64,000 nt of DNA from an uncultured delta proteobacterium (lineage in GTDB: Bacteria > Desulfobacterota > Binatia > UBA9968). The notes below the pieces were generated by a model. That model was not told the DNA's origin, ran no database searches, and worked only from the letters and a program-made list of their open reading frames with translations. Where the stretch lies: contig CAVTUQ010000003.1 in NCBI GenBank assembly GCA_963737905.1, positions 38,485 to 102,484 of the forward strand, read 5' to 3'. Each line of letters starts with the position of its first letter. The stretch's first letter is position 1. Shown in pieces: positions 56,363-62,318 of the stretch. The position numbers and the translations under genes are program-made.

Positions 56363-57661
56363 TTAGAGCGGACTGAATTCAGTGCTCCACTTCAGAAGGG
56401 GTCTGACAACTCCTTCGAAACTACCGTTCCAATCACCGCGCGCGGAGTCGCCTTCCAGAGTGTCCACGACCTGGAAAGCGACCGCTTCACGTACAGAAAA
56501 TTGTTTGCTAACAGGCTCTTCAGTAATAAGCCCGGGCGTCACAAACAGGATACCTTCCGATAAGAGATTTCCGGGAATGCAAGCAATGCTCACCCACCGG
56601 CCGCATGGGCGGGGGCGGCCTCGCCACATGGGATCGAGGTCGATGGCTTCAAACGCCATCACTCCGTTTTGCGTAACAAACTGTATATAGGATAAAAGCA
56701 TGCGGCCCGGCTCAAGCACTTCATATTCGACTTCGATATGAACCGGCCGACGGATGTCCACGGTATCTGTAATCTGGCCGTCTTCGTTGCGCACGCGAAC
56801 TGCGCGCAGTCGAGCCACATTACCGCCAGGTGCCTTTGTCGGGTCCGGCCACTCACGTGTACACGTGGAGGCGAGTCCGGAACTCAGGTAAACACTAACT
56901 ACTTCGGCCGCCGGCCCGTCCTTTACTACTTTTCCTTCGTTGATTAGAACTGCTCGGCTACACATGCGTGTGATCGCAGACATGTTGTGCGACACGAGCA
57001 GCACCGTACGGCCTTGCTGCCCAATGTCCTCCATTTTATCCAGACATTTCCTTTGGAAATTCGCATCGCCGACGGCCAGGACTTCATCGACGATCAGGAT
57101 TTCCGGCTCGAGATAAGCCGCCACCGCGAACGCGAGCCGGAGATACATGCCGGTAGAAAAATGCTTGACCGGTGTATCTATAAAGGTCTCTATCTCGGCA
57201 AAGGCGACGATTTCGTCGAACTTTCGCTCGATTTCCGCTTTCCTCATTCCCAGAATGGCGCCATTCAGGTAAATGTTTTCTCTGCCGGTTAGCTCCGGAT
57301 GAAAACCGGTGCCGACTTCCAACAACGAGCCTACGCGGCCGCAAATTTCAGCAAACCCGGTTGTGGGCTCGGTGATGCGTGAAAGAATCTTGAGCAGGGT
57401 GCTTTTGCCGGCTCCGTTGCGGCCAATGATCCCAACAACCTCACCGCGGTTTACTGTGAACGAAACATCTTTTAGCGCCCAAAAACTGTGATCGAGGTTG
57501 CCAGGCCGGAGATCACGAAGTTGCATCTTTGAACGGAGACGGTGAAGGGGGGCGGTAAAGGAATCCGTTAACGCCTCACGCAGAGTCTTGTACCCTGTCT
57601 GTCTTGCACCGATCCGGTAGAGCTTACTTAGCCCATCAATTCGAATAGCGAGGTCGTTCAT
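56363..57661 (-). CDS. wzt: Polysaccharide ABC exporter ATP-binding subunit with Wzt C-terminal domain
   Basis: GRNGAGKSTLLK, LLEVGTGFHPELTGREN, HFSTGM, ILIVDEVLAVGD. Confidence 0.95.
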   Translation of the reverse strand: MNDLAIRIDGLSKLYRIGARQTGYKTLREALTDSFTAPLHRLRSKMQLRDLRPGNLDHSFWALKDVSFTVNRGEVVGIIGRNGAGKSTLLKILSRITEPTTGFAEICGRVGSLLEVGTGFHPELTGRENIYLNGAILGMRKAEIERKFDEIVAFAEIETFIDTPVKHFSTGMYLRLAFAVAAYLEPEILIVDEVLAVGDANFQRKCLDKMEDIGQQGRTVLLVSHNMSAITRMCSRAVLINEGKVVKDGPAAEVVSVYLSSGLASTCTREWPDPTKAPGGNVARLRAVRVRNEDGQITDTVDIRRPVHIEVEYEVLEPGRMLLSYIQFVTQNGVMAFEAIDLDPMWRGRPRPCGRWVSIACIPGNLLSEGILFVTPGLITEEPVSKQFSVREAVAFQVVDTLEGDSARGDWNGSFEGVVRPLLKWSTEFSPL

Positions 57662-57666
57662 CAGCT

Positions 57667-58071
57667 CTAGCCTAGGTTGAGTGTCGAAAGTCTAGCGTTG
57701 AGAGGCCTACTCTTGACGCTCGGTTTGATAGTGCGGCGAAGTCCGCTCAACATTTTCGCTAATTCTTCTGCCTGCTTGTAAGTCCTTTCGAAAGCTGTAT
57801 TAGGTACAAGTTTCTGGTTTTGGGCGATTCTTAACTCCGAGACGGACTCTAGCAATGACCCGTAAGCGATTTCGATAAAGCGATTGAAGTCGATCCTGGA
57901 TGATCGAGACGATCCCTCGGCGATATTAGAAGATACAGAGACTGAAGACCGGCGTAGTTGGCTTGTTAGACCAAACCGCTCCTCTTCCGGAAATGTTCTG
58001 GTTACATAATAAATCGTGCCCGCATACTCCACAGCTCTGTGCCATACCTCTAGCTTTTCAAGCCCAAACAT
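57667..58071 (-). CDS. Four-helix-bundle protein (23S-rRNA-IVS/Avd-like family)
   Basis: LEVW...FPEEERFGLTSQLRRSSVSVSSNIAEG...IAYGSL; GGAGG RBS. Confidence 0.93.
   Translation of the reverse strand: MFGLEKLEVWHRAVEYAGTIYYVTRTFPEEERFGLTSQLRRSSVSVSSNIAEGSSRSSRIDFNRFIEIAYGSLLESVSELRIAQNQKLVPNTAFERTYKQAEELAKMLSGLRRTIKPSVKSRPLNARLSTLNLG
57676..57703. repeat. 7-mer array, inverted partner of 58082-58146
   Basis: gttgagt-gtcgaaa-gtctagc-gttgaga. Confidence 0.6.
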
Positions 58072-58081
58072 ATCGCCTCCA

Positions 58082-58146
58082 AACCCTCAACCCTCAACTC
58101 TCAACTCTCAACCCTCCCAGCGTCAACCCTCATCTCTCAACTCTCC
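58082..58146. repeat. 7-mer tandem array (YCTCAAC) upstream of the four-helix gene
   Basis: cctcaac-cctcaac-tctcaac-tctcaac-...-cctcatc-tctcaac, about 9 units. Confidence 0.9.
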
Positions 58147-58147
58147 A

Positions 58148-58993
58148 TCACACCACATCCGCGAAGGTTTTTTCCATGCGGCGGAAGTAAAAAGCGCCCC
58201 CGACCAAGATCGCCAACGCTGCGAGCGAAGAGGCGACAATGATGGGGCCAGGCGCTGTATTGGTTCCCAATAACGCCCAGCGGAAGCCTTCGACTACACC
58301 TACCATCGGGTTCAATCCGTACACCGTGCGCCAAGGCTCGGAGAGCAGGCTACTTGGATAGGCGATGGGGGTCGAAAACATCCAAAATTGAGTCAGGAAG
58401 GGCACCGTATAGCGAACGTCCCGGAACTCGACATTCAGCGCCGAAAGCCAAAGTCCCACGCCCAGCGAAGTGATCAGCGCCAGGAGGAAGAACAGCGGAA
58501 GCCACAGCGTATTGATGGTAGGTATCACGCCGTAATAGAGCATCATCCCGAGCAAAACAATAAATGCCAGCGCAAAATCCACTACTCCCGCCAGTATAGT
58601 AGCGACGGGCACAGCCAGGCGCGGGAAATAAACTTTCTTGATCAAATCGGCGCTGCCCACCAGGCTGTTTGAGGATTGGTTCAAACCGTTCGCAAAAAAT
58701 GTCCAAGGCACCAAGGCGGCAAAGCTGAAGATCGGATAGGGAACACCATCGGAAGGAATTCCTGCGAGGCGTCCGAAAAACAAGCTGAAAACTATCATAG
58801 TAAAAAACGGTTGGATGATGGCCCAAGTGGCACCCAGGAGAGTTTGCTTGTAGCGTACCTTAACATCGCGCCAGGTTAGGAAGTAAAGCAATTCTCGATA
58901 CTCCCATAACTCGCGCAGCTTGAGCGAAACCCAGCCACGCGAAGGCTCGATCCGGATGACCGGCGGGGTGATGGCGTTTTCTTTGGTTGACAT
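58148..58993 (-). CDS. wzm: Polysaccharide ABC exporter permease
   Basis: RDVKVRYKQTLLG, LIKKVYFPR, FRDVRY, LNPMVGVVEGFRW, FADVV. Confidence 0.95.
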   Translation of the reverse strand: MSTKENAITPPVIRIEPSRGWVSLKLRELWEYRELLYFLTWRDVKVRYKQTLLGATWAIIQPFFTMIVFSLFFGRLAGIPSDGVPYPIFSFAALVPWTFFANGLNQSSNSLVGSADLIKKVYFPRLAVPVATILAGVVDFALAFIVLLGMMLYYGVIPTINTLWLPLFFLLALITSLGVGLWLSALNVEFRDVRYTVPFLTQFWMFSTPIAYPSSLLSEPWRTVYGLNPMVGVVEGFRWALLGTNTAPGPIIVASSLAALAILVGGAFYFRRMEKTFADVV

Positions 58994-59029
58994 TAATCAG
59001 TTCTTCCTACGAACGCTGTTGGTCCTGAG

Positions 59030-59169
59030 ACTTTCTCTGTACTCCGTGTCTCTGCGGTGAATAAGAATTCTGATTTCGGAGATCTCACCGCCGAGGCGCC
59101 GAGGACGCAGAGTAAAGAGTTCTTGGTCAAGAATACTCCGATCTCTGAACTCTGCGTCTCCGTCGTGAT
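59030..59169. repeat. Reverse copy of the ~86-bp hairpin element plus a half arm
   Basis: Reverse complement of 59083-59169 matches 3897 and 52758 copies including the loop accaagaactctttactc. Confidence 0.85.
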
Positions 59170-61307: not shown

Positions 61308-61309
61308 CT

Positions 61310-61705
61310 CTAGTACTGCTTCGTTAGATGGGACGCGGGCCGTGGCTTGCGGGTAATGCGATAACTGTCGAGGTCGGGTCTCAACCGCCGGCCCATGGGA
61401 TCTTTTCCCAACCATCGCCTCAACGCTCCAATGGGAGTTACAATAGCATAGAACACTACACCTAAAATGATCCTCGTATTGATCCAACCTAAGACCTCCC
61501 CGATCCACATCCACCCTTTGTAAGCCCAGGTCAAGCTCCTGGGAAAAACGGCGGCCGGAACCAGAAGACATCCCGCCACCACGACAGCCCACCAGCGCGG
61601 ACTCTCAGCACGAATAATCAGCGGCCATAAACCGATAAGAGCGAAGATGCCGCCCACGGTAAAGCCGAAAGACCGTAATTGCTTGATTGTGATTTCGTTT
61701 AGCAA
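61310..61705 (-). CDS. SxtJ-family membrane protein
   Basis: LRSFG, WMWIGEVLGWINTRIIL, TPIG, GKDPM, DSYR, QY terminus. Confidence 0.9.
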   Translation of the reverse strand: MLNEITIKQLRSFGFTVGGIFALIGLWPLIIRAESPRWWAVVVAGCLLVPAAVFPRSLTWAYKGWMWIGEVLGWINTRIILGVVFYAIVTPIGALRRWLGKDPMGRRLRPDLDSYRITRKPRPASHLTKQY

Positions 61706-61713
61706 CGTTCACT

Positions 61714-61851
61714 CCGTAAGCTGTGAGCAGGAAAGGGTAAGCAGTCAGCAGTGAGCAATGAGCAGTTCAAACTCTACAGTGAACAGCAAGCGGTGGGACC
61801 GCTGCTGTTTCCCGCTTACCGTTTTTCTGCTTACTGCCTGCCGCTTACTGT
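61714..61851. repeat. Inverted 7-mer arrays downstream of the second four-helix gene
   Basis: gtaagct-gtgagca-ggaaagg-gtaagca-gtcagca-gtgagca-atgagca versus gcttacc...gcttactgcctgccgcttactg. Confidence 0.85.
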
Positions 61852-62213
61852 CTTCTGTTCACTGATTTTCTCAGTCCATAGGTAAGGGCAAGGCACTCAT
61901 CGAGCGGCCGGTAAACACGATCGTAATCAGTCCCTGTCACATACCCGAGGCGTAGCGCCAGCTCTAGTTGAGTATCTATCTCGTTGAGGGAACCGATCGC
62001 GTTGGACAAATAGTTCGAAAATTGTTGTCTGGTGCGACCGGCAGCACCCTCGGCGATGTTTGATGGCGCCGACACACCTGCGCGCCTTAATTGCGAAGTT
62101 AACGCGTATAATTCTTCTTGCGGGAATGCTCTCGTTAGCTCATAAACGCTAACCGCGAAATCCATCGTCTTCTGCCAGGCCATGAGGTTTCGGTGGGGCT
62201 TTTTACTGTTCAT
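61845..62213 (-). CDS. Four-helix-bundle protein (23S-rRNA-IVS/Avd-like family), second copy
   Basis: LMAWQK...FPQEELYALTSQLRRAGVSAPSNIAEG...AIGSLNEIDTQL. Confidence 0.93.
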   Translation of the reverse strand: MNSKKPHRNLMAWQKTMDFAVSVYELTRAFPQEELYALTSQLRRAGVSAPSNIAEGAAGRTRQQFSNYLSNAIGSLNEIDTQLELALRLGYVTGTDYDRVYRPLDECLALTYGLRKSVNRRQ

Positions 62214-62231
62214 TGTTCGCTCCGTTGTGGT

Positions 62232-62317
62232 CTATTGCTGTTTACCGCCCACGGCTCACTGTCTTACTCACTCTCTTGGTCTCTTACTGCTTCCTGCTCA
62301 CTGCTTCCTGCTTACTC
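62232..62317. repeat. 7-mer array (CTYACTG) upstream of the second four-helix gene
   Basis: cttactg-cttcctg-ctcactg-cttcctg-cttactc. Confidence 0.88.
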
Positions 62318-62318
62318 T

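Follow-up and report, generated by a model that had tools for sequence, protein, structure and literature searches.

What are two genes of one small-protein family doing in a polysaccharide operon, each placed between two partner cistrons? The question is raised by a 64,000 nt stretch of DNA from an uncultured delta proteobacterium (Desulfobacterota, Binatia, UBA9968), namely positions 38,485 to 102,484 of contig CAVTUQ010000003.1 (assembly GCA_963737905.1). This whole stretch is called the window; its coordinates are used throughout, and its contig is contig C3 of the genome. The two proteins belong to the four-helix-bundle (4HB) or S23p family, first seen in the intervening sequences (IVSs) of 23S rRNA. 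Few unexplained small genes are as common in Bacteroidota, cyanobacteria and many soil phyla as those annotated as 'four helix bundle protein' or S23p. They recur inside cas, polysaccharide and other operons, and have been taken as functional partners of their neighbours.

The best-supported answer is a structural one: the genes are carried by IVS-type cassettes whose place is in mRNA operons and not in rRNA. As a unit the cassette is discrete: at orthologous junctions it is present, reduced to its arms, or absent. The same architecture is found in several phyla and in a genuine rRNA IVS. Comparison of clade-mates between genomes shows gene and arms to be inherited together and sometimes to relocate together. 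The whole reading, of stem-loop cassettes with an S23p-family open reading frame (ORF) between inverted tandem arms, resident in mRNA operons, we regard as somewhat probable.

The two cassettes of the glycan operon

All genes between 54 and 64 kb are on the minus strand. In transcript order they run from carbamoyltransferase through 4HB copy 2, an SxtJ-family protein, DUF5989, a DegT aminotransferase, a sugar transferase, a wzm-like permease, 4HB copy 1 and a wzt-like ATPase to a methyltransferase. The cassettes are made up of the following parts, with repeat calls from Tandem Repeats Finder (TRF):

62214..62318, minus strand: 5′ arm of cassette 2, G-rich CAGTRAG-type heptamers from the carbamoyltransferase stop to the copy 2 start (TRF 62255-62316)
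61845..62213, minus strand: 4HB copy 2, 122 aa (PF05635 E 7.1e-34; TIGR02436 E 8.6e-33)
61706..61844, minus strand: 3′ region of cassette 2, in transcript order a second G-type array (~61800-61844) and then a C-rich complementary arm (~61714-61790)
58072..58147, minus strand: 5′ arm of cassette 1, ~9 TTGAGRG units from the wzm stop to the copy 1 start (TRF 58082-58145, period 7, 9 copies)
57667..58071, minus strand: 4HB copy 1, 134 aa (PF05635 E 1.8e-34; TIGR02436 E 5.7e-33)
57662..57720, minus strand: degenerate 3′ arm of cassette 1, two imperfect CTCTCAA/CACTCAA units overlapping the ORF end and abutting the wzt ATG (marginal)

The 4HB ORF is the only ORF within each cassette. The 5′ arm of cassette 1 contains GGAGG immediately 5′ of the copy 1 ATG, and its degenerate 3′ arm encodes the C-terminal tail of copy 1. 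In cassette 2, the C-rich arm could form a local hairpin with the second G-type array or pair with the 5′ arm.

TTGAGRG dimers, with up to two mismatches allowed, were found 14 times in the window against 1.57 expected, and none of 100 shuffles reached 14. They lie at 58077-58147 (minus strand) and 23009-23059 (plus strand), plus one stray. CAGTRAG dimers were found 19 times against 0.89 expected (0/100 shuffles as high): around copy 2 at 62248-62317 and 61823-61836 (minus strand) and 61714-61790 (plus strand), and away from it at 61284-61304 (minus strand), 51221-51255 (plus strand) and 51501-51521 (minus strand), plus strays. With dimer counts so far above the shuffles, the view of the earlier note, drawn from the DNA alone, that each copy has its own 7 nt repeat type is upheld. 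The same applies to the TTGAGRG array that it placed upstream of copy 1 in the mRNA, and to the CAGTRAG units that it placed upstream of copy 2 and, in both orientations, downstream; the inverted flanks of copy 2 align with a score of 40 against a shuffle maximum of 22. The CTCTCAA-type units described over the 3′ end of copy 1 do exist as two imperfect copies, but they are statistically marginal, with no dimer-pattern match and no inverted 9- or 10-mer common to both flanks.

The genes next to the cassettes are:

62319..63998, minus strand: carbamoyltransferase, upstream neighbour of cassette 2, continuing past the window end (PF02543 and PF16861)
61310..61705, minus strand: SxtJ-family membrane protein, downstream neighbour of cassette 2 (PF19588)
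61037..61228, minus strand: DUF5989 gene
58148..58993, minus strand: wzm-like ABC-2 permease, upstream neighbour of cassette 1 (PF01061, ABC2_membrane)
56363..57661, minus strand: wzt-like ABC ATPase, downstream neighbour of cassette 1 (PF00005, ABC_tran)

The two copies score 118.6 and 116.7 bits against PF05635 (23S_rRNA_IVP; cut-off 33.8) and 113.4 and 112.8 bits against TIGR02436 (four helix bundle protein; cut-off 24), and share 36% protein identity. Profile matches and gene order thus agree with the earlier description of two diverged homologues, co-oriented with the operon, between the partners wzm/wzt and carbamoyltransferase/SxtJ. Copy 1 has a solved homologue in Xcc0516 (PDB 2GSC, E 3.7e-20); a weaker match among solved members is 2RLD (E 1.2e-4), and each of the two structures is listed with five chains. 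Matches to the Avd profiles of diversity-generating retroelements (DGRs) are weak, copy 1 reaching 23.9 bits with PF22296 (E 6.4e-5; cut-off 40) and copy 2 reaching 23.8 bits with NF033474 (E 4.2e-5; cut-off 80). A role in anti-phage defence was set aside, as the PADLOC models gave no family for four proteins at E up to 0.01. A consensus scan of the minus strand between 56300 and 63000 found no sigma-70-like promoter, and terminator-like sites in that interval (8, against 7.5 in shuffles) were not above chance.

Arrays of the same two unit types also occur in the window without a gene:

~61240..61309, minus strand: CAGTRAG-type array in the SxtJ/DUF5989 spacer, seen in the sequence (dimer matches 61284-61304)
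23009..23075, plus strand: TTGAGRG-type single-arm array (TRF 23008-23066)
51221..51521: inverted pair of CAGTRAG-type arrays, 51221-51255 on the plus and 51501-51521 on the minus strand, with other repeats between

Four such sites had been proposed; those at 23008 and 51220 stand, as does the one given as 61203, which actually lies at ~61240-61304, but the array at 13181 (13179-13202) is built of another unit, CACTCGT, unlike TTGAGRG or CAGTRAG.

Other repeats were seen in the window. The sugar transferase/wzm spacer (58997-59186) holds a different dispersed repeat, found also at ~51300-51460, with the TRF unit CAGAGATCG at 3902 and 52765. In two soil runs the contig depths at this spacer add up to 63 and 36, compared with ~5 around it, and many soil-run contigs end or diverge there. 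A 411 nt tandem duplication (1.9 copies, 87% matches) occupies 39990-40749. A tRNA-like gene, read by eye at ~22720-22815 on the minus strand, has two repeat elements as neighbours, a GTTCAAR-type hairpin (22600-22715) on one side and the orphan TTGAGRG array on the other.

Inverted arms in the genome and its relatives

The genome (6.7 Mb, 46 contigs, 54.5% GC) has 11 PF05635 genes, and almost all of them, in gene orientation, are preceded by short tandem repeats and followed by the reverse complement of these. The units differ from gene to gene: TTGAGRG, CAGTRAG, GTTCAAR, GGCNTAT, GAGGTCAGA, GAGCAWGG, GATTTTSGA and GGATTKCGAA. Inverted 7-mers proved too permissive a measure of this arrangement, and 9- and 10-mers were used instead; at least three inverted 10-mers link the flanks of 8 of the 11 genes, against 63 of 6285 crude ORFs, the 63 including these eight.

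Among relatives, PF05635 is present in 23/24 genomes of the same family, 5/5 of a second family and 0/11 of a third. From ~120 matches outside the genome, 60 loci were taken from published genomes, all near-full-length and lacking internal stops, so that the sample favours intact genes. Together with the 11 own genes these make 71 loci, of which one was too short for scoring, leaving 70 (59 of them from 24 relatives). Arms were scored by local alignment of the upstream flank with the reverse complement of the downstream flank, with a threshold of 28. This was reached by 55 of the 70 loci, compared with 8/800 random and 6/800 small control ORFs drawn from the window's genome (Fisher p 4e-64). 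The arm period is 7 in 44/71 loci and 6-12 in the others, and the median arm is 31 nt long (~4.4 heptamers). The order of units is mirrored between the arms of a cassette, the observed matches lying above the unit-permuted mean in 67/71 loci, 18 of the 71 being individually extreme.

The arms also have a polarity. The 5′ arm has more G than C in 46 loci and less in 6, and of the gene-less hairpins between co-oriented genes 26 begin with the G-rich arm and 3 with the other. Fixed polarity relative to transcription favours a strand-specific role, in RNA or in single-stranded DNA (ssDNA). A C-rich arm, if transcribed first, would be exposed to Rho, which may be one reason for the polarity.

The heptamer arrays themselves extend far beyond the cassettes, and they could be an independent, genome-wide intergenic repeat, comparable to the STRR heptamers of cyanobacteria described below, with small genes merely gathering in the same permissive spacers. 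The genome has 488 merged period-7 arrays for its 11 family genes, and 444 of the 488 are intergenic or at gene edges, though 85% of the genome is called coding; some ordinary genes are likewise flanked by inverted arrays. This explanation also draws on the abundance of GTTCAAR arrays, which is decoupled from the matching clade: 75-137 hits were found in each of three genomes with no GTTCAAR-clade gene (G017, G010 and G001, metagenome-assembled genomes (MAGs) of 96%, 94% and 93% completeness, the missing part being a caveat), and only 2 in G008, which has the gene. We nevertheless consider it highly improbable, given that inverted flanks are found at 79% of family genes and 1% of controls, that gene and arm type are co-inherited across genera, and that the same build appears in distant phyla with unrelated units and even inside an rRNA gene, where a generic intergenic repeat is unexpected. 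Array density, moreover, falls with the number of family genes (76, 17.5 and 2.5 per Mb in genomes with 11, 2 and 0 4HB genes), in a comparison of three genomes that forms one phylogenetic contrast and is confounded by phylogeny and GC content.

Many of the arrays are connected to the cassettes by their units. Of 111 inverted pairs that share a unit type, 61 are separated by less than 100 nt and so form gene-less hairpins. Of the 462 arrays distant from 4HB genes, 102 bear a unit identical to that of a cassette arm (null mean 6, null maximum 13), and the remainder, inspected by eye, are mostly of the same families or of families that flank 4HB genes in relatives. GTTCAAR arrays give 179 hits in the genome and up to 516 in G024. 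The idea that a cognate protein drives its arrays in trans is weakened by the decoupling of GTTCAAR arrays from the GTTCAAR-clade gene.

Arrays are especially dense in the polysaccharide cluster at ~160-210 kb of contig C28, which holds 86 of 492 period-7 TRF rows and 4 of the 11 4HB genes, with small DUF433-like and antitoxin-like ORFs between arrays. A GAGGTCG-type array at C28:194394-194459 lies in frame in the N-terminal region of a wzt paralogue and encodes ...TSDLRPPTSGLRPLTSDLRP...; since three heptamers equal seven codons, arrays can ride in frame inside genes. Runs of ~430 T (C14:118261-118694) and ~100 G (C26:102938-103059) are probably assembly artefacts.

Orthologous junctions, descent and relocation

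If cassettes are discrete units, related genomes should differ in whether a given junction is filled. For wzm/wzt, 20 loci were fetched from relatives, of which 14 had both genes. Four of these junctions are tight (6-7 nt), five have 48-194 nt of non-coding DNA, four are occupied by a PF05635 gene between inverted arms of its own (one of them, L007, known solely from the unpublished genome G006), and one holds sulfate-activation genes. The variable segment begins right at the wzm stop and ends right at the wzt start. On another contig of the window's genome there is a second wzm/wzt junction, also filled. The wzm genes of this genome, G020 and G022 are 81% identical, and their junctions hold three 4HB lineages, at most 35% identical or of the other subfamily.

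A longer series of alleles was found at the site of the GTTCAAR copy (C7:222986-223423), between lexA and an imuA-like gene, a site conserved in six genera. It is filled in six genomes with both flanks homologous. In nine genomes from the same family, and in seven from the third, lexA stands beside the imuA-like gene with no 4HB match. In three genomes (G015, G020 and G016), both GTTCAAR-type arms align to those of the filled allele, and ~440 nt of ORF are replaced by ~50-60 unrelated bases between them. One arm is left in G011, hairpins of other unit types occupy the spacer in G023, G005 and G018, and the third family has no hairpin. Another conserved site, 2.5 kb downstream, holds a second GTTCAAR-type copy (C7:225786-225938) that a TGA interrupts. 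Five genomes of the same family (L166, L168, L169, L174 and L176) share a conserved motif immediately 5′ of the imuA-like start, GCACTC-n-GAGTGC followed by GGCGGAAGCC, placed downstream of the hairpin or cassette; it may be a regulatory element of the SOS mutagenesis operon.

The only orthologue found of the carbamoyltransferase/SxtJ site (G022) is filled, with a protein 88-92% identical to copy 2 and CAGTAAG-type arms. No empty carbamoyltransferase/SxtJ junction was found among the relatives, in only 3/40 of which SxtJ was found, and two SxtJ loci (f3) have no carbamoyltransferase match upstream. At L116 (G022:C135, ~1400-1690), this orthologue of copy 2 is split at its SNIAEG motif by a ~280 nt insert encoding a small GIY-YIG-like protein, with inverted ends CCCTGTGAAATA / TATTTCACAGGG; this insert is a selfish element nested in cassette cargo.

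The empty alleles sought by the earlier note are therefore on record, as tight wzm/wzt junctions and as the filled, arms-only and bare states of the lexA/imuA-like site. Its proposal that cassettes enter and leave operons with scars left behind is supported by these two series; the carbamoyltransferase/SxtJ junction, where the sole orthologue found is filled, counts against it in part.

Descent accounts for much of the distribution. Arms are more alike where proteins are more alike (Mantel p 0.001), though only above ~60% identity, so that the expected association of repeat unit with protein clade is present. Where the arms of two loci are similar, the loci are nearly always clade-mates of different genera, with proteins mostly 60-96% identical; the wider clade of copy 2 (hb2), at 46-52% identity, retains AGTRAG-like units. 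Many clade-mates stand at orthologous sites, with dN/dS of 0.04-0.18 and dS of 0.37-2.1 where estimable. The low dN/dS indicates that the protein is functional and under purifying selection, and the high dS that many cassettes are old vertical residents. This inheritance at fixed sites, with dS >1, counts against parts of the reading in the earlier note, as do the plentiful gene-less arrays of genomes without the matching protein clade and the absence of a G.U excess in arm mismatches.

Relocation and replacement of cassettes, to judge from such comparisons, do occur, though rarely. The GAGGTCAGA clade is found with the same arms at three non-homologous sites, the window genome's own wzm/wzt junction and two others in G005, and L043 and L044 have the same clade and arms at two sites within G009. 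In L045/L086, L064/L081 and L071/L083, both flanks are homologous (segments 62-84% identical) while the resident proteins are only 19-32% identical. In L032/L089, with residents in the same range of identity, the downstream flank is 83% identical and there is no upstream match.

Such moves would be natural for a DNA-level mobile element, in which the inverted arrays are subterminal repeats or ssDNA hairpin ends, acted on by a recombinase in trans or by the 4HB protein itself, and the gene-less arrays are derivatives like MITEs, the miniature transposable elements with inverted repeats. The arms-only alleles at an orthologous site, the 102 distant arrays with a cassette-arm unit and the sheer number of GTTCAAR arrays all fit it, as does the lack of an RNA-specific wobble bias in arm mismatches. 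Candidate enzymes exist in the genome, namely one reverse transcriptase (RT; the sole PF00078 match, C25:346127-346801) and five Y1-transposase-like genes (PF01797). All of these are on other contigs and away from the cassettes, so that the earlier statement of no RT or transposase in the window holds for these two profiles; it had extended to integrases, which were not searched. No recombinase lies in or beside the cassettes. A target-site duplication is not evident when filled and tight wzm/wzt alleles are compared, these alleles not being recent. A separate recognition would be required for each of the dozens of unrelated arm sequences, the number of arrays does not follow the matching gene, and many copies have remained at one site since before genera split. 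The polarity of 46:6 in cassettes and 26:3 in hairpins is unexpected for a double-stranded DNA site. On this evidence a DNA-level element is unlikely.

The sequence of the arms is itself conserved within clades, at saturated dS; in L021/L040, arm similarity is 0.92 at dS 1.2. The arrays might therefore primarily be rows of binding sites for the encoded pentamer, one repeat per subunit in the manner of TRAP, forming a self-contained module for autoregulation or ribonucleoprotein formation in which arm pairing is secondary. TRAP reads spaced triplets, and the units here combine a core that is conserved with spacer positions that vary. Arm type goes with protein clade, down to the AGTRAG-like units of the hb2 wider clade, and the protein is under strong purifying selection. 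The median arm of ~4.4 heptamers is close to the five chains of the homologue 2GSC, described in a passage of PMC4990558 as a homopentameric toroid. Descent alone can, however, explain the co-variation of protein and repeat; gene-less arrays persist in genomes without the matching clade, arms-only alleles are intact with no ORF to serve, and the inverted copy is left without a role. We judge rows of binding sites as the primary function to be quite unlikely.

Transcript folding and comparison with known systems

The preferred reading, of IVS-type stem-loop cassettes in mRNA operons, can be put as a sequence of events. A promoterless S23p/23S_rRNA_IVP ORF is the cargo between inverted arrays, G-rich arm first, occupying exactly the spacer between two operon cistrons. 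In the polycistronic transcript the arms would pair into a long imperfect stem with the ORF looped out, as the folds and the rRNA IVSs suggest. The stem would bury the Shine-Dalgarno sequence of the ORF and part of the leader of the next gene, and by analogy with rRNA IVS stems it would be cut by RNase III, an enzyme encoded in this genome. The cassette could thereby uncouple or tune its neighbour cistrons and its own expression. More speculatively, the pentameric, Avd-like protein may bind its own repeat arms.

In the predicted fold of cassette 2 the outer arms pair (the arm 62214..62318 with 61714-61760), with z -2.96 and 0/20 shuffles better. In cassette 1 the arms pair in both the minimum free energy and the centroid structures, and the stem takes in the GGAGG before the 4HB start and ends within a few bases of the wzt start, so that pairing or cleavage could set the expression of both genes. 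The pairing of arms that had been foreseen is thus matched by these predicted folds and by the complementary flanks of 55/70 loci (~1% in controls). RNAduplex energies of long flanks allow huge interior loops and were no better than shuffles at 3/4 loci; they were discarded as a statistic. Public reads gave low-depth soil-metagenome contigs and one metatranscriptome at 0.05 word share, with no contig spanning either cassette.

Several results weigh against this picture. The inverted flanks of copy 1 score 26, below the shuffle maximum of 29 and at a level attained by 11/800 control genes, and shuffled sequences fold as stably as cassette 1 as a whole (z +0.53). An excess of sense-strand G.U pairs among arm mismatches, expected if selection acts on an RNA stem, was not found (G.U 77, A.C 71; p 0.68). 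Unit variants do not follow a mirrored order in the inverted array pairs that TRF called within 700 nt of each other, most of them without a gene (22.26 matches against 22.30; 31/78); there, complementarity comes from the shared unit cores alone. By crude ORF calls, 21 of 58 informative loci differ in orientation from at least one neighbour. Within clades, arm sequence is conserved and not just pairing; a factor that recognises the arms would explain this no worse than a plain stem does.

The architecture is not confined to the Binatia but appears in Bacteroidota, cyanobacterial and Gemmatimonadota records as well. A single-protein scan of genome contigs gave 6 loci, four of them usable, and the genomes of those loci were then searched for further copies, with the following counts of loci with arms (score at least 28):

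Prevotella MAG: 6/6
Bacteroidales MAG: 3/4
Candidatus Binatia MAG: 4/5
Flavobacteriales MAG, AT-rich: 3/9

The fifth Binatia locus has visible GAGGTCAGA-type arms, and its protein tail resembles that of the C28 copy in the window's genome. Plasmid-borne family members are mostly cyanobacterial, and arms were found in 5/6 inspected plasmid loci:

Stanieria
Pseudanabaena (cas6/gene/cas4)
Gemmatirosa
Azospirillum lipoferum 4B
Picosynechococcus PCC 7003 (cmr2/gene/cmr3), GGAGATAA-type arms

The Azospirillum lipoferum 4B locus, with inverted GGACRGA-type arms, lies inside a 23S rRNA gene (RF02541, 2142 bits) and is hence a genuine IVS. S23p-encoding 23S rRNA IVSs are also known in Leptospira and Brucella. 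In the window, terminal inverted repeats surround the ORF of copy 2 and are marginal for copy 1, and neither copy is inserted in a 23S rRNA helix. The 23S gene of this genome (C5:170831-173835) is 3005 nt long for 2925 model positions, with no IVS-sized insert, and none of the 11 4HB genes is on the contig that carries it.

A broader proposal would unite these observations. The S23p family and its arms would be one widespread module, in which the pentamer reads about five units of its own lineage in RNA or ssDNA and recognition, not a transposase, maintains, regulates or spreads cassettes; 23S rRNA IVSs, gene-less hairpins and possibly the short tandemly repeated repetitive (STRR) sequences of cyanobacteria would be its products. 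We offer this tentatively and think it doubtful. If true, the GTTCAAR copy fixed between lexA and the imuA-like gene would tie the module to the SOS response.

The more limited conclusion, that these are IVS-type cassettes, would already have consequences. Guilt-by-association readings of S23p genes would need revisiting, and the thirty-year-old question of the origin of rRNA IVSs would have a testable answer in a cassette family that resides mainly in mRNA. The hundreds of intergenic heptamer hairpins per genome would gain a candidate origin, and junctions that seem translationally coupled could have an element for processing or insulation built in. Natural controls for experiments are available in the filled, arms-only and empty alleles.

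The 4HB family, rRNA IVSs with inverted repeats (and heptamers in one species) and the cas-operon copies are already published. In the literature searched, which included few subscription journals, we found no description of inverted arms around non-rRNA copies or of their generality across phyla, nor of clade-specific units, polarity, the allele series or the link to gene-less hairpins. The first papers on the Leptospira IVS or on cyanobacterial STRR sequences, for instance, could contain an older description.

Among known systems, 23S rRNA IVSs are the closest. They too have a PF05635 ORF in the loop of an inverted-repeat stem, tandem heptamers in the 5′ arm, the purine- or G-rich arm first, and ORF-less forms. 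According to a passage of PMC4990558, terminal inverted repeats give the Coxiella IVS a stem of 28 bp, and two or three GACAGAT heptamers stand in tandem 5′ of the S23p ORF, their number varying among strains, with RNase III cleavage at the first repeat; the paper also quotes the older idea of the IVS as a mobile element. Cleavage, shown for rRNA IVSs, would apply to operon cassettes by analogy. The window elements differ in lying between protein-coding cistrons and in the purifying selection on their proteins; decay has been reported for the Coxiella ORF. DGR Avd, described in part of PMC10053308 as a nucleic-acid-binding partner of RT, has a homologous four-helix-bundle fold, but the copies fall far below the Avd profile cut-offs and have no RT, template repeat or variable repeat nearby.

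The cas-operon 23S_rRNA_IVP genes are members of the same family between coupled genes. A passage of PMC3936711 reports 18 of them within cas loci, for example between cmr3 and cmr2, and takes the association as functional; flanking repeats are not mentioned in that passage. The arrangements cmr2/gene/cmr3 and cas6/gene/cas4 were seen here on plasmids with arms.

Heterocystous cyanobacteria have several families of tandem intergenic 7 nt repeats, the STRR sequences. They resemble the arrays described here in being intergenic tandem heptamer families, and cyanobacterial plasmids dominate the plasmid matches of the 4HB family; no published link between STRR and 4HB genes was found in the literature searched, mostly without subscription journals. 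Repetitive extragenic palindromes and bacterial interspersed mosaic elements (REP/BIME), with their REP-associated tyrosine transposases (RAYTs), and MITEs are likewise dispersed intergenic hairpin-forming repeats with gene-bearing and gene-less forms. The cassettes differ from these in having no transposase, in arms that are tandem arrays and not a single palindrome, and in the dozens of unrelated unit types per genome. Integron gene cassettes are also promoterless ORFs with an imperfect inverted-repeat element, co-oriented and read from a host promoter, but they have one attC element and stand in one array, whereas the cassettes described here have two flanking arms and lie at operon junctions.

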